64,000 bases of DNA, from NCBI GenBank assembly GCA_965205865.1, contig CBDBHR010000024.1, positions 32,001 to 96,000 of the forward strand, given 5' to 3'. Origin of the DNA: a bacterium (lineage in GTDB: Bacteria; SAR324; NAC60-12). A program made the position numbers and the translations under genes. Under the pieces are notes generated by a model, which did not search any database, was not told the DNA's origin, and worked only from the letters and a program-made list of their open reading frames with translations. Of this stretch, positions 10,651 to 15,945 are shown one piece after another; position 1 is the first letter of the stretch; the number at the start of each line of letters is the position of its first letter.

Positions 10651-11819
10651 GTGTGTCGCTCTTTTATTAATGTGTAAAAAAATCCTTGGTTTGCTATACT
10701 ACGAGCTGTCCTTTTTTTTGCATATATGGAGACAGCATGAGAAAAGCACCAAGTATAAAACTGACCCGGGAAGAACGGGATGAATTGGGCAAAACCGCAC
10801 GCCGTCATACCGGAGCGATGCGAGACACTCGTCGTGCGCGCATCATCCTGTTGGCTGCTGATGGCCTTAAGAATCAAGAAATTGCCAAAACGCTTGGAAC
10901 CAGCGGTAATGCCGTTGGAAAGTGGCGACGGCGCTTTGTTGAAAAAGGAATAACAGGTCTCAATGATGATCCGCGGCCTGGCAGGACACGCATTTATGGA
11001 GCGGATAAAATCGAGGAGATTGTGAAGAAAACCATTGAAGAGAAGCCTGAGGACCGTACCCATTGGAGCACGCGATCGATGGCCAAGGCAGTTGGCGTAG
11101 GCAAGACAACCGTCGGTAAAGTATGGAAGGCCCATCGCCTCAAGCCTCATCTGGAAAAAACATTTAAGTTGTCGCATGATAAGCATTTCACTGCGAAACT
11201 GAAAGATGTCATCGGTTTGTACATGAATCCTCCTGAGAAAGCGCTGGTCTTGAGCGTCGATGAGAAATCACAAATCCAGGCACTCGATCGCACCCAGCCA
11301 GGTCTGCCACTGAAACCAGGGCGCAATGGCACCAGAACTCATGATTATATCCGTCATGGCACCTGCTGTCTGTTTCTGCTTTGAATACGCAACAGGGATG
11401 CTCGCTCGCTGTGAAAAACGGCACCGACACCAAGAGTATCTGCGCTTCCTGCGTCTTATTCAAGACTACCTCGAAGCAACTGCAGGTAACTTGATCCTGG
11501 ACAATTACGCCACCCACAAACATCTTAAGGTGAAAGAATGGCTCAAAAAAACCCGCGATTTCACCCGCATTTCATTCCTACTTCCTCCTCATGGCTGAAC
11601 ATGGTGGAACGCTTTTTTGGCAAGATCACTGCAGAACGGATTCGACGAGGCGCCTTCAAAAGCGTGCTCGATTGACCGAAGCCATCCATAGTTACATCGA
11701 GACACACAATCGCAACCCAAAACCCTATGTCTGGACTAAAACTGCCGAAGAAATTATCAACAAACTCAAACCTGTCTACCAAATGACCAATAATACAATG
11801 TATTAAACAGGCAATACAC
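10651..11819 (+). mobile_element. IS630-family element; transposase (10737-11806) broken by several frameshifts
   Basis: [37 protein letters not shown] motifs; imperfect IRs GTGTGTCGC/GTGTATTGC flanked by TA. Confidence 0.88.
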
Positions 11820-12734: not shown

Positions 12735-13211
12735 ATGAATTGGAAAGAGGTATGCGCAGATCCTAATTTAAGCGATTTACCGTACAAAATTGAACTCAAT
12801 GAAAGAGGACAAATTCTTATGAGTCCAGCTAGGCTTTTACATTCACTCTATCAAGCAAAAATTATTAAATTGCTAATAAAATTGATTGATCATGGTGAAG
12901 TCATCCCAGAGTTTGCTATCGCCACAGAGAAAGGGACAAAAGTACCTGATGTTGTCTGGTGCTCAGAAGAATTACTCAATCAGGTGAAGTATGATCCTGA
13001 AAGTTCAATAGCCCCTGAGTTATGTATTGAGGTTCTCTCACCTACGAACACAGACAATGAAATCGATGAAAAAAGAAATCTCTATTTCAGTTTAGGGGCT
13101 AAGGAAGTCTGGATATGTGATGAAAAAGGAGAAGTGCAATTTTACAATAAGGCTGGAAAAATAAAAAACTCAAATATGTGTCCTCCTTTCCCTGATTTAG
13201 TTAAAGTCTAG
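12735..13211 (+). CDS. Uma2 (DUF820) family putative endonuclease, integron cassette gene
   Basis: MSP...H, VPDV, APELCIEVLSP, YFSLGAKEVWI motifs. Confidence 0.9.
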   Translation: MNWKEVCADPNLSDLPYKIELNERGQILMSPARLLHSLYQAKIIKLLIKLIDHGEVIPEFAIATEKGTKVPDVVWCSEELLNQVKYDPESSIAPELCIEVLSPTNTDNEIDEKRNLYFSLGAKEVWICDEKGEVQFYNKAGKIKNSNMCPPFPDLVKV

Positions 13212-13218
13212 CCCCCTC

Positions 13219-14040
13219 AGCCAATCGGGATAGGAAGGGGTTTTTCTCCCGTCCCTCCCACACCACCCCGCATACGGGTCCGTACGGGGCGATTCCCAAA
13301 GAGTGTCGGGCCGTAGCCGGACCAGATTTGCAACCACAAACCTGTACGTTTATTCGTCCCACAACGCACCTATTTTAATCATCTCCACCGGTCGGCTTCA
13401 TCAATGTACAGAGCATATGGGATAGAGCGTTCTCTTGGGTTCGGGCCTTCACTCTCCAGGAGCTACTATGCCCTCGGCTGACTTCTGACCGCCTTCGTTG
13501 CCGATTACTCGACACCGCGCTACCTGAGACAAACGAGAAGAAGGAGAGTGATGCGCAAGAGAGGAATTAACCGCTCCTGGCTCTTCTAGTCTTCATCTCA
13601 CTATCTCCGACCGCATCACGATCAGATCTCCCCGGGTAAGAGCATGAACTTTCCCTACACAATCGCAGCATTTACCATCCTCCTTAATCCGAGTGGACAT
13701 CGCAATGTCGTGCTTGCTCGCCCCGAAGTTCAGCCTTATATGCTGTTTCTGTCCGTCGACTCGTAGGTTTGCGCTTAGGCTTCCTCCGCACGGCTCGTCA
13801 CCTCCCCGCACTTGCCCTCGGCTAGTACTTTTTAAAGTTGTAATCATAAGCTGACTAGTATACTTTTCGGATAATGTACAGGGGACTCACACCCCATAAG
13901 TTCATGCCCATGCCGGGCACACACAAGCCGCATGCAGCAGACGTCCACTACTCACTTTGACTCCGTGGATTGAGTAAAGTTTTACCGTCATCGTCGCAAT
14001 GTTTTATGGGTGGACGCTGCTGATGACTTAATTGTTAAAT
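13219..14040 (+). other. attC site (about 123 bp without the intron) interrupted by a group II intron
   Basis: R'' AGCCA|AC, L'' CATGCAGC (13931), L' GCTGATG (14019), R' GTTAAAT (14034); arms CAGCAGACGTCCAC / GTGGACGCTGCTG. Confidence 0.8.
13224..13922 (-). ncRNA. Group IIC-attC intron, ORF-less (699 nt)
   Basis: 5' GTGTGCCCGGCATGG; GAAGTCAGCCGAGGGCATAGTA; domain V GAATCGCCCCGTACGGACCCGTATGCGGGGTGGTG; 3' CCTATCCCGAT; inserted at TTGT|T of the attC bottom strand. Confidence 0.9.
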
Positions 14041-14097
14041 GCTCTGTTCACAGACAAAATTTCTTATTTATTCCCCTCTAATCCAGTAATATTATTT

Positions 14098-14126
14098 TTG
14101 ACAAAATGCACACGATGTATTACTAT
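14098..14126 (+). promoter_or_regulatory. Promoter of the toxin-antitoxin cassette
   Basis: TTGACA-N17-TACTAT; ATG only 6 nt downstream. Confidence 0.75.
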
Positions 14127-14132
14127 TAGGTT

Positions 14133-14414
14133 ATGAAAGATTTTGAATGGAACAAAGAGAAAAATGAATGGCTAAAGGAACAGCGGGACATTTCTTTTGA
14201 AGAGATTGTTTACTTTATTGAGAATGGAAGTTTGCTTGATAGTTATGAGCATCCCAATAAAAAGAAATATCCGAGACAATCAATATTTGTTGTTCAAACA
14301 GATTCTTATATTTATTTAGTTCCTTACGTTGAAGAAGATGCCTATTATTTTCTGAAGACAATCATTCCCAACAGTGAAGCAAAAAAGAAATATATGGAGG
14401 AGAACAATGAGTAA
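14133..14414 (+). CDS. BrnT-like (DUF497) toxin
   Basis: FEWNKEKNEWLKEQRDISFEE...FLKTIIP. Confidence 0.8.
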   Translation: MKDFEWNKEKNEWLKEQRDISFEEIVYFIENGSLLDSYEHPNKKKYPRQSIFVVQTDSYIYLVPYVEEDAYYFLKTIIPNSEAKKKYMEENNE

Positions 14415-14676
14415 AAAAAATTACAAGTTCGATGCCCAAGAGCAAGCAATTCTTGATTCTTTCAATCGTGGAGAATGGGTATCAAAAGGCGAAAACCTGG
14501 ATAAATACAAAGAGGTGGCAAAGAAAACCTTCGCAAAAACGCATCGGATCAATTTTCGCGTGAGTGAAAAAGATTTTAGAGGAATTCAAGTTAAAGCTAG
14601 AGAGGAAGGAATCCCCTACCAAACCTTAGTATCCAGCGTGGTTCACAAGTATTTAACAGGTCAATTGAAACAATAG
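14407..14676 (+). CDS. BrnA/CopG-like antitoxin
   Basis: RINFRVSEKDF...AREEGIPYQTLVSSVVHKY; GGAGGAG SD; overlaps the toxin end. Confidence 0.8.
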   Translation: MSKKNYKFDAQEQAILDSFNRGEWVSKGENLDKYKEVAKKTFAKTHRINFRVSEKDFRGIQVKAREEGIPYQTLVSSVVHKYLTGQLKQ

Positions 14677-14684
14677 ATTGACGC

Positions 14685-15945
14685 CATAGGTGTTCGGGAT
14701 TTTAGATCTCATGCAGCCTTTTTAAGCTCTAGGGTTTGATCGATAGGGCTTTTCGAGGTTGTTTGCCTGAGAGTTTCGAGTTCCTCGGTCAAGATTCGTT
14801 TCAGTCGCATTAACGAAGTTTCTCTGTGTTTGTAATTGGGGTCGTAGATCACATCGGCAAAAAGAAGAATTTTCCAGAGTAAGTTCTCGAATGCCTGTGG
14901 AGCAGGCTCTAGAAAAAACGGACAAAATCTTCGGCTAATAAGGCCGCGATTTTTGCGATCCGTTGAAAGGAAATCGCCAATTTCTTTTCTGGCTTGAGTT
15001 GAGCTTGTCCGATATGCAGAATTGAAGAGGAGGCGAGATGCCCGGCCAGAGAAGCCAAGAGCAGGTTTTGAATAATATAAGGATTGTTCGAGGTCATGCG
15101 CTCGGCATTCAAGGAGGATTTGTTCGATTTAAAAATCAGTTCCACTTGCCACCTCAAACGATACAGGGGGTAGAGGAGGGCAGCGGGAACCTTTAAATTG
15201 GTTAAGTAAAAGTGGTTGTGGCGTTGGCTCTTATTCCAGAAACCGATCGCCCGACAGCTCAACAGTTGCTCTTGATGGAGTTTCTCGATACGAACCTCAA
15301 TGAGGTCTTGACGCTTTTTACGAAAAGGAATGCTCATCAAGTCCTTACCGATCCGTTCCAGAGGGTAAAGCTCGTCGAATCGACTAACTGAATGCTGCTC
15401 ACGCCCAACTCTTTGAGCAGCTGCGAGCCATAACCGGCTCTTTGGCACAGGTGGCTCATCAAGTGCGAAACCGTCTCCAGCAGCAAGGTGTTCAGTCGTT
15501 TGCGCGAGAGGCGTTCCCAGAAGGCACTGCGGCTGATGTCATCTCCTAAATGCTTTTTCATCAGGCGCCGCAAGCTTTCCAGCGACGGGAGTTTGGTATC
15601 GAGTTGAAAACAGAACATCAAGTTGACGACAAAATCGTAGGGACTGATTTCAGTCCGCTTGTCCTGAGAGGGAAGAATGCGTTGAAGCACTTGTTTCATA
15701 GTGCTAAGAATGTTAATTTCTTTCATGGTGGTCTCCTGCTGATCGGGAGTGGAAACTCCCTTGGTTTTGGTATTTCAGCAAGGATACCGTCTTCAATGTC
15801 AATAGGCTATTGAAATGATGATGCGAAAAACTCCGAATACCTCTGATTCCGGAATGTAATTAACCAGTTAGGAAACTGACAGAATATTGCTACCAAATCT
15901 TTGTATATAACTGAAATTATTGAATTTAAATCCAGAACACCTATG
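14685..15945 (-). mobile_element. IS4-family element with internally deleted, frameshifted transposase (14722-15726)
   Basis: IRs CATAGGTGTTC(G/T)GGATTT; LVDST and YRLRWQVELIFKSNKS (YREK) motifs; no target duplication seen. Confidence 0.85.

Follow-up and report, generated by a model that had tools for sequence, protein, structure and literature searches.

How can a group II intron which does not encode a reverse transcriptase (RT) be present in several copies of one genome, and how does it come to occupy an attC-like site in an assembly in which no integron integrase is found? These questions are raised by a 699-nt element on the minus strand of the window (the whole stretch of 64,000 nt that was analysed), which belongs to contig C24 of a 4.74-Mb assembly of 30 contigs that is 91.9% complete. 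The probable answer is that the element is a class C intron of the attC-targeting type which is structurally complete, whose RT/maturase was deleted from domain IV, and which cannot copy itself and is moved in trans by its relatives.

Bacterial ORF-less introns have been described in genomes which also contain related RT-encoding introns (PMC4424553). The ORF-less TeI3 introns of Thermosynechococcus elongatus, as presented by Mohr, Ghanem and Lambowitz (2010, PMC2882425), have one deletion in common and are mobilised by the RTs of the TeI4 introns. Group IIC-attC introns (S.ma.I2 type) were defined by Leon et al. (2010, PMC3001079) and Sonbol and Siam (2021, PMC7923331). According to the definition given in the latter paper, they insert at TTGT/T within the R″ box of the attC bottom strand, in the orientation opposite to that of the cassette genes. 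HYERs (Liu et al., Science 2024, as cited in PMC11754743 and PMC12990946) are described as ORF-less class IIC introns which cleave RNA and single-stranded DNA, the length of HYER1 being 637 nt.

Structure of the Intron

Read on the minus strand, the element (13922-13224) begins with GTGTGCCCGG and closes with CTATCCCGAT. It is preceded by ...GCGGCTTGT, of which the last bases before the insertion point are GGCTTGT, and followed by TGGCTGAGG. Its 5′ end, GTGTG, lies at 13922-13918 and its 3′ end, CCCGAT, at 13229-13224. A group II intron is expected to start with GUGYG, to end with AY and to have a bulged A 7-8 nt from its 3′ end; here the RNA starts with GUGUG, GAU is found at 13226-13224, and A13231 is bulged.

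Three Rfam models match the element on the minus strand: group-II-D1D4-3 over the full model (13641-13807, 109.8 bits, E = 1.4e-21), group-II-D1D4-1 (13444-13519, 53.7 bits) and Intron_gpII, which describes domains V and VI (13224-13294, 38.4 bits, local E = 9.8e-6). The last score is just under the Rfam gathering score of 40, which counts against a functional intron moved in trans, but full-length relatives score 37-39 bits with the same model, likewise below the gathering score, and the low value is therefore a trait of the lineage. An earlier note on this DNA, made from the sequence alone, had proposed a 699-nt minus-strand intron with these termini and with domains V and VI; its coordinates proved exact, and the Rfam matches bear it out.

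Domain V has a CGC triad, an upper stem of 4 bp and a 2-nt bulge. When 11 related 3′ ends are aligned, 90.5% of the cells of domains V and VI are paired and 8 of the 25 pairs are changed on both sides; none of 500 shuffles reached the pairing or the covariation score. The minimum free energy (MFE) fold of the whole 699 nt has a six-domain layout (z = −2.57, 0/20 shuffles as good). The element is a group II intron ribozyme, as identified by its conserved domains I-IV and its domain V/VI core (Table 1).

Inspection of the ORFs inside 13224..13922 finds no RT gene, and the longest ORF within the intron has 84 aa. Traces of such a gene are present in domain IV. In its upstream part there is a GGAG-ATG sequence, with the ATG at 13380-13382 (minus strand), followed by 10 codons and a stop. 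Towards its 3′ side, CCGGCTACGGCCCG (13307-13320) shows homology to the final codons (PATAR) of the RT gene in full-length relatives; about 45 nt of the intron are homologous to the 3′ end of that gene, with a one-base frame slip and with the stop codon gone. Since both ends of the RT gene are left, the gene was cut out of domain IV.

Table 1. Features of the window around the intron, and copies and derivatives of the intron elsewhere in the assembly.
Feature	Position	Strand	Basis or remark
Uma2-family gene	12735..13211	plus	Pfam PF05685, 62.5 bits; ends 12 nt before the intron 3′ end, convergent with the intron
attC-like site, left part	13219..13223	plus	first five bases of R″ (AGCCA/AC), severed by the intron
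ORF-less class C group II intron, whole element, 699 nt	13224..13922	minus	Rfam, termini, no RT ORF, MFE fold
Domain VI, bulged A at 13231	13227..13259	minus	Rfam, alignment of 3′ ends
Domain V, CGC triad, GACC loop, UG bulge	13262..13293	minus	Rfam, alignment of 3′ ends
Domain IV remnant, ~150 nt	13293..13443	minus	sequence reading; 3′ part homologous to the end of the RT gene in full-length introns
Domains II-III, other intron lineage, ~65% identity to the full-length family	13444..13622	minus	Rfam D1D4-1 match at 13444-13519 and alignments
Domain I, intron nt 1-300	13623..13922	minus	99% identity to resident full-length introns; abrupt drop after nt 300
EBS1, ACGA in the window copy	13708..13711, in hairpin loop 13703-13718	minus	loop conservation in aligned introns
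attC-like site, right part	13923..14040	plus	last two R″ bases, L″, loop, L′, R′ GTTAAAT at 14034-14040
Two overlapping small ORFs, weakly BrnT-toxin-like and CopG-antitoxin-like	14133..14676	plus	Pfam 21.9 and 22.6 bits, both under the curated cut-offs
Full 699-nt copy	C24 (window)		100% identity to the window copy
Full 699-nt copy	C23:180923-181621		99.7% identity to the window copy
Full 699-nt copy	C10:71543-72241		99.4% identity to the window copy
512-nt mini-intron minus its nt 325-507 (without domains II-III)	C28		internally deleted copy
Decayed mini-intron copy, same domain IV	C3		struck later by a 237-nt repeat (MITE) and a 1.76-kb IS
3′ fragment of the mini-intron family, degenerate end	C29		fragment
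713-nt element, full-length form with a clean deletion that fuses nt 1-576 to nt 1808-1950	C28		separate RT-deletion derivative

An attC-Like Target

An attC site lies behind a gene and has an imperfect palindrome, roughly 57-141 nt long, framed by R″ and R′ boxes. Without the intron, the site of the window is 123 nt long, starts 7 nt after the stop codon of the Uma2 gene and consists of an R″ box (AGCCAAC, which fits RYYYAAC at 6 of 7 positions), an imperfect palindrome and an R′ box (GTTAAAT, which fits GTTRRRY at all 7). The intron is inserted at TTGT/T within R″, which it splits as AGCCA/AC, in the position also taken by the integron-borne introns described below, and it is antisense to the Uma2 and BrnT-like genes that adjoin it. 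The insertion is thus of the IIC-attC kind. On the minus strand, the hairpin formed by the right part of the site ends 11 nt before the insertion point. The BrnT- and CopG-like ORFs sit on the far side of the site, with a sigma-70-like site at 14098-14126.

Two observations speak against an attC. The energy of the hairpin is within the range of shuffled sequences (z = −1.46, 17 of 200 shuffles fold as well), and an inverted-repeat search and a reading of the flanks found no second attC and no cassette array around the window site. The comparison with a related genome (G060), in which a cassette array stands beside an integron integrase gene (IntI, 350.9 bits), points the other way. The three attC sites of that array, of 86, 60 and 97 nt, have the motif ACAA..GCAT.CAGC.GAC ... 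GC.GCTGATG..GTT in common with the window site: their boxes read RYYYAAC-AAA.GCAT.CAGCGGAC ... GCCGCTGATG..AC-GTTRRRY, and the matching boxes of the window site read AGCCAAC-AAGCCGCATGCAGCAGAC ... GCTGCTGATGACTTAATT-GTTAAAT. The left-box pattern has 3 matches in the 14.3-kb array of G060, none in seven other loci and 3, all of them chance-like, in the whole 4.7-Mb genome to which the window belongs. The earlier proposal of an insertion at TTGT/T that splits R″ on the attC bottom strand agrees with the AGCCA/AC split and with these boxes.

The right-hand 114 nt of the site recur once in the genome, on contig C26 (95.6% identity), where they are preceded by another ORF and carry a full-length intron; the similarity extends from the insertion point to the GTT of R′ and no further. 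These are the two attC-like sites of this type in the genome. They lie on different contigs and both are occupied by an intron, and motif searches for unoccupied sites of the same type gave chance-like matches only.

No integron integrase was found in this assembly: the best match to TIGR02249 has 43 bits, for a cut-off of 265, and matches of the same weak kind occur in all 14 control genomes. An integrase above the cut-off is present in 8 of the 64 genomes of the order, all of the same family, and in the only other genome of the genus there is an integrase fragment of 122 bits that contains an internal stop. From the box matches, we conclude that the target is an attC of the family's type which now stands as an orphan. 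The idea put forward in the earlier note, that the intron locks the Uma2 cassette against excision, is reasonable in principle, but moot in an assembly without an integrase.

Copies of the Intron and Resident Full-Length Relatives

A BLAST search of the assembly with the element, of the kind which the earlier note had recommended, recovered copies with the same deletion on C23 and C10, at different sites and again at TTGT/T (Table 1). The three copies of this mini-intron, as it is called hereafter, differ at only 5 of their 699 positions. To either side of the intron their flanks have nothing in common, beginning with the very first flanking base, and the copies therefore result from separate insertions, not from duplications.

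The family also has damaged members (Table 1), and further intron fragments lie on C28 and C26. The repeat which struck the copy on C3 has dozens of copies in the genome; this decayed intron carries the same domain IV as the intact ones, so that the deletion of the RT gene is not recent. The 713-nt element of C28 derives from the full-length form, which indicates that clean RT deletions recur in this genome. The genome is intron-rich, with 38 domain V/VI matches at E values up to 0.001.

The insertion sites share a target motif. The intron is preceded by TTGT in 10 of the 10 elements that keep their 5′ end and followed by T in all 10 that have a canonical 3′ end. Folding of 8 sites showed that most have a hairpin whose end lies about 9-12 nt before TTGT, and pairing of the R-box kind across the insertion point is seen at several other sites of the family. 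At the site of the 713-nt element, where a sugar-kinase gene ends, the hairpin is minimal. The genes beside several sites are small genes of the toxin-antitoxin or Uma2 type.

The search for an intact RT was also successful. Three full-length relatives are present in the same genome, on C25, C15 and C26 (1953, 1953 and 1950 nt, respectively), each with an open frame of 453/454 aa for an RT/maturase with a YADD motif, an RVT_1 match of 125 bits and a GIIM (maturase domain) match of 44 bits. They are referred to as helper introns in what follows. A non-autonomous intron moved in trans is expected to leave just this signature, with three copies that have the same deletion at differing sites and three relatives whose RT gene is intact. 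These comparisons of sequence support the earlier suggestion of a non-autonomous, possibly trans-mobilised intron.

The copies might instead have spread at the DNA level, by integrase-mediated movement of cassettes or by homologous recombination in place of retrohoming. This is very improbable. It could draw on the 114-nt attC-like repeat that the window and C26 sites have in common, and on domain I, which is homogenised between the mini and full-length copies (see below) and shows that some recombination occurs. However, the intron in one of the sites with this repeat is a mini-intron and that in the other a full-length one, the flanks of the three full mini-intron copies are unrelated, and the assembly has no integron integrase.

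Target Recognition and Changes in the Window Copy

The sequence by which the intron would recognise its target lies in domain I. The hairpin loop GCACAACA at nt 205-220 (GCACAAxA) is kept in six of six aligned introns, two of which come from class 1 integrons, and all six are inserted at TTGT. ACAA in this loop is the complement of TTGT and constitutes EBS1. Class C introns recognise their target by a short IBS1-EBS1 pairing (3-4 bp) and by IBS3, while a DNA hairpin upstream of the insertion point takes the place of IBS2. The window site agrees with this in that EBS1 (ACAA or ACGA) pairs with TTGT, a T (IBS3) follows, and there is a hairpin upstream of the insertion point.

EBS1 is ACAA in the C23 copy, in all full-length copies and in the integron-borne relatives, and ACGA in the window and C10 copies, which have a G at nt 214. 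ACGA still pairs with UUGU by means of a G·U wobble. As G214 is common to two copies that occupy different sites, the variant has moved at least once after it arose. A second change, from G to C at 13251 (nt 672), is private to the window copy and breaks one pair of the 12-pair helix of domain VI. With a wobble in the EBS1-IBS1 pairing and one broken pair in domain VI, the window copy may itself be weakened, and both changes count against its being mobilised in trans.

Could the intron be an inactive relic, that is, a member of a family which moved formerly, but in which splicing and movement have ceased for this copy and perhaps for every other, leaving a scar between the Uma2 gene and the attC-like hairpin? 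Beside these two substitutions, the visibly decayed members (the C3 copy with its MITE and IS, the 512-nt copy without domains II-III and the C29 fragment) would fit such a history, as would the search for spliced forms and promoters described below. Against it speak the near identity of the three full copies, the movement of the G214 variant and the intact state of the helper introns, and one mismatch in a 12-bp helix and a G·U pair are mild changes. We regard a relic as unlikely, although it is the most serious of the alternatives. The earlier note had held that a single copy with broken domain I/EBS pairings and no splicing would have to be read as a decayed relic; there are three full copies, and the EBS1 of the window copy is altered yet still pairs.

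The contigs of four public runs (two of unstated kind and two metatranscriptomic) were searched for joints that skip exactly 13224-13922, as expected of ligated exons or of an empty site, and none was found. This counts for a relic and against mobilisation in trans, weakly so, as contigs only were searched. One contig (13623-14259, run X4) bridges the occupied 5′ junction, and the 3′ junction is crossed by 27 nt only. The stretch 13287-13575, which is specific to the mini-intron, is found unchanged in contigs from two RNA libraries that belong to one study; carry-over of DNA is possible in these libraries, and the contigs are therefore not counted as a sign of expression. A scan with the sigma-70 consensus found no promoter upstream on the intron strand within 13100-14200, which weighs on the same side as the missing joints. 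A consensus scan inside the intron gave no outward promoter like that of S.ma.I2 (2 sites in the whole region, for 1.5 expected).

A Chimeric Intron

The mini-intron and the full-length introns are not related in the same way along their length. Nucleotides 1-300 are 99% identical; from nt 301 the sequences cannot be aligned by BLAST, save for a conserved block of 18 nt. In global alignments, domains II-III are about 65% identical to those of the full-length family, and identity rises to about 90% in the last 68 nt. The position where identity falls, nt 300, is the end of domain I. The strands of domain V differ in a compensatory manner, with CGCCCCG/CGGGGUG in the mini-intron versus CGCCACU/AGUGGUG in the full-length form, which indicates two functional lineages, not decay.

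By these alignments the mini-intron is a chimera, with domain I from the helper family and the remainder from another lineage. The clean deletion of the RT gene, as suggested from the sequence alone, thus holds in part: the gene is gone and both its ends are left, but the intron does not derive from a resident full-length intron by simple deletion. A search of 64 genomes of the order and 88 of the class for an intron that has an RT and could be the parent of the 3′ two-thirds found none, which is a point against mobilisation by the resident helpers. In addition, domains II-IV are only about 65% identical to those of the helper, so that recognition by the helper protein is not assured.

A second genus of the same family (genome G048) also has an ORF-less intron, of 639 nt, together with a full-length one. 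Within G048, domain I of the two forms is 91.7% identical, compared to 85.7-87.3% between the domains I of this genome and those of G048. Domains II-III of the full-length lineages are 78% identical between the two genomes, and these lineages are orthologous. In both genomes domain I is closer to that of the resident partner, which we read as an exchange of domain I between helper and parasite. It is conceivable, though we would not put it above a tentative proposal, that the ORF-less intron is a long-lived lineage which stays compatible with its helpers by repeatedly taking over their domain I. Domain I both recognises the target and provides the docking site of the protein. Template switching during reverse transcription and gene conversion at the DNA level are possible routes of exchange, considering the patterns seen in these two related genomes.

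The G048 intron also bears on another alternative, in which the ORF-less class C RNA is, as in HYERs, its own hydrolytic endonuclease acting on DNA or RNA, possibly with a role in the host or in defence, and has no need of a helper RT. The architecture and size class are those of HYERs, and the 639-nt relative suggests that the protein-less state persists. But new genomic copies require reverse transcription, which is beyond RNA alone, the sites of the copies fit retrohoming, and the neighbourhood gives no hint of a defence or host role beyond the toxin-antitoxin-like genes. This makes such a function improbable.

Relationship to Other Class C Introns

Among 72,556 plasmid records, the best matches of the helper RT are RTs with 44-49% identity. 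Three of these plasmid RTs, examined in detail, lie antisense in cassette arrays of class 1 integrons (the IMP-26, VIM-2/fosE/aadA1 and arr-2 arrays). Their introns, which occupy attC sites, are flanked by ...AATTGT and TAG..., and have in common with the mini-intron family the TTGT/T site and the 5′ 46 nt (86%). They end in ...CTACCCGAT (a CTAxCCCGAT end), as the mini-intron family does. The helper RTs end in ...HYPATAR in two copies and in ...HYPAKAR in the third; none of the three integron-borne RTs has the PATAR ending, which, by these sequences, is apparently a trait of the lineage of this genome and not of the class. The PATAR remnant seen in the earlier reading of domain IV is thus homologous to the end of the resident RT gene, as that reading implied, but the three integron-borne RTs give no support to its being typical of IIC-attC RTs.

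Three more distant RTs (34-41% identity) belong to introns located immediately behind perfect hairpins that carry runs of T, as is the habit of class C introns of the terminator type. The 5′ sequences and the targets of these introns differ from those of the mini-intron family. The set of Rfam matches is the same in all the introns that were compared (helper, integron-borne and terminator-type). In a maximum likelihood tree of 14 RTs, in which the class labels of the reference RTs are drawn from insertion contexts and not from a curated list, the helper, the three integron-borne and the three terminator-type RTs form one clade (support 99/98), apart from the 5 other RTs; inside the clade the tree gives no firm order of the three kinds. 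By its target and its RNA features, the family works like IIC-attC introns and resembles them; the RT tree does not decide on its membership.

Proposed Route of Mobilisation

In the reading that we favour, mobilisation in trans, the RNA of the mini-intron would be spliced and held by the RT/maturase of the full-length relatives of the same genome, and would reverse-splice into single-stranded DNA. Insertion would take place 9-12 nt after a bulged hairpin, at TTGT/T, where EBS1 ACAA would pair with IBS1 and where IBS3 is T. The inserted RNA would then be copied into DNA. We infer splicing, the dependence on the helper, retrohoming as the route of copying and the mode of exchange of domain I from the arrangement of the copies and of their sites.

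Comparison with Known Systems

The closest parallel is that of TeI3. In the account of Mohr, Ghanem and Lambowitz (PMC2882425), as here, one ancestral deletion in domain IV has left remnants of the N- and C-terminal ends of the ORF in all copies, the copies occupy different sites with good EBS/IBS pairing, and related RT-encoding introns are present in the same genome. By the same account, TeI3 and TeI4 are chloroplast-like IIB introns with long targets, whereas the window intron is of class C and has a target of 4 + 1 nt after a hairpin. There are 17 intact copies of TeI3, compared to three here. Mobilisation in trans was worked out experimentally for TeI3; for the window intron it is deduced from sequence. 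Unlike TeI3 as described there, the ORF-less form of the window joins domain I of its helper to a diverged body.

With IIC-attC introns, the window intron shares the TTGT/T site in R″ of the attC bottom strand, the EBS1 loop, the ...CCCGAU end and a helper RT that is 44-49% identical to theirs. It differs from them in that it has no RT gene and starts with GUGUG, theirs being GUACG. Its host has neither an integron integrase nor a cassette array, and the intron has no outward promoter by consensus scan.

HYERs and the window intron were compared by description only. Both are class C ribozymes of about 640-700 nt with no protein-coding region and with a short target-recognition sequence. Unlike HYERs as they are described, the window intron has clear helper introns, and its copies at several sites point to retromobility.

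Publications already exist both on class C introns that lack an ORF (HYERs) and on ORF-less introns mobilised in trans (TeI3), so that the window intron adds a neat example to a known kind of element. A literature search found no paper naming an ORF-less IIC-attC intron; earlier papers on IIC-attC introns or HYERs may describe some. Its most interesting features are the sharp chimerism of domain I with the helper and the orphan attC context.

Significance

The intron shows cleanly, in nature, how a class C intron that targets attC lives as a parasite of its full-length relatives, in a genome where annotation based on ORFs misses it. As compact programmable nucleases, class C ribozymes without an ORF are of practical interest, as in the case of HYERs, and a family which comes with its target sites and with natural variants of EBS1 is a useful data point in this respect.

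As for the target, sites of the attC type can outlive the integrase as orphans, and the occupancy of both sites by introns would block any future excision of a cassette. The sharp chimerism of domain I hints at how helper and parasite remain matched. If the exchange of domain I is true, an autonomous ribozyme-retroelement and its parasite would be exchanging a module, much as SINEs share their tail with a partner LINE.

Derivatives and arrays of the intron

The 699-nt mini-intron of the window is not the only ORF-less derivative in this intron family. Contig C28 of the same genome (G000) carries a second, independent one of 713 nt, which corresponds to the full-length, RT/maturase-encoding intron with nt 577–1807 cleanly deleted. 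It has inserted into a gene for a pfkB-family kinase, at the gene's extreme end, and the stop codon of that gene now lies within the intron.

Copies of this intron family also adjoin other introns. In G048, a genome of a related genus, two loci (L031 and L023) carry them head to tail: at L031 the 3' end of one intron (...CCCGAT) is followed by a single T and then by the GTGTG of the next, while at L023 the same two ends are joined without any intervening base. It is as if domains V and VI (DV/DVI) of one intron had provided the hairpin at which the following one inserted. On C29 of G000, a 3' part of the mini-intron begins immediately 3' of DV/DVI belonging to a different group II intron, an arrangement that points to another intron nested within domain III of this copy.

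Domain IV of the decayed mini-intron copy on C3 contains a MITE-like repeat (about 237–340 nt) present in dozens of copies throughout G000. Part of the adjoining 1.76-kb insert is also found there in many copies; G000 is thus crowded with small mobile elements.

Coordinates of the features
Feature	Location	Strand
Frame-broken transposase gene, helix-turn-helix domains	window 10686-11806	+
MITE-like repeat, one partial copy in window	window 11461-11793 (C24:43461-43793)	
Frame-broken transposase gene, DDE_Tnp_1 fragment	window 14909-15726	-
MITE-like repeat in domain IV of decayed mini-intron	G000 C3:81424-81660 (outside window)	
713-nt ORF-less derivative of full-length intron	G000 C28:366703-367415 (outside window)	
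3' part of mini-intron, from nt 459	G000 C29:727953-728269 (outside window)	
Head-to-tail introns, L031	G048 C152:68-805	
Head-to-tail introns, L023	G048 C177:5-402	

The attC-like locus and integron integrases

In the window, the block formed by the Uma2 gene, the intron and the BrnT-like ORF is bracketed by the frame-broken transposase genes. Past the stop codon of the antitoxin-like ORF, the stretch CATGCAGCC (14690–14730, + strand) is similar to L'' in the attC-like site that holds the intron. Between this stretch and the DDE_Tnp_1 fragment no partner half is present; the stretch may represent a second attC that has been truncated.

In several of the family's genomes (G038, G046, G062, G020, G035 and G044), integron-integrase matches are split or partial and do not reach the cut-off; in the sole other genome of the genus, the match is a 122-bit piece containing an internal TAG. 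This pattern suggests that the integron integrase has been lost repeatedly in this bacterial family.
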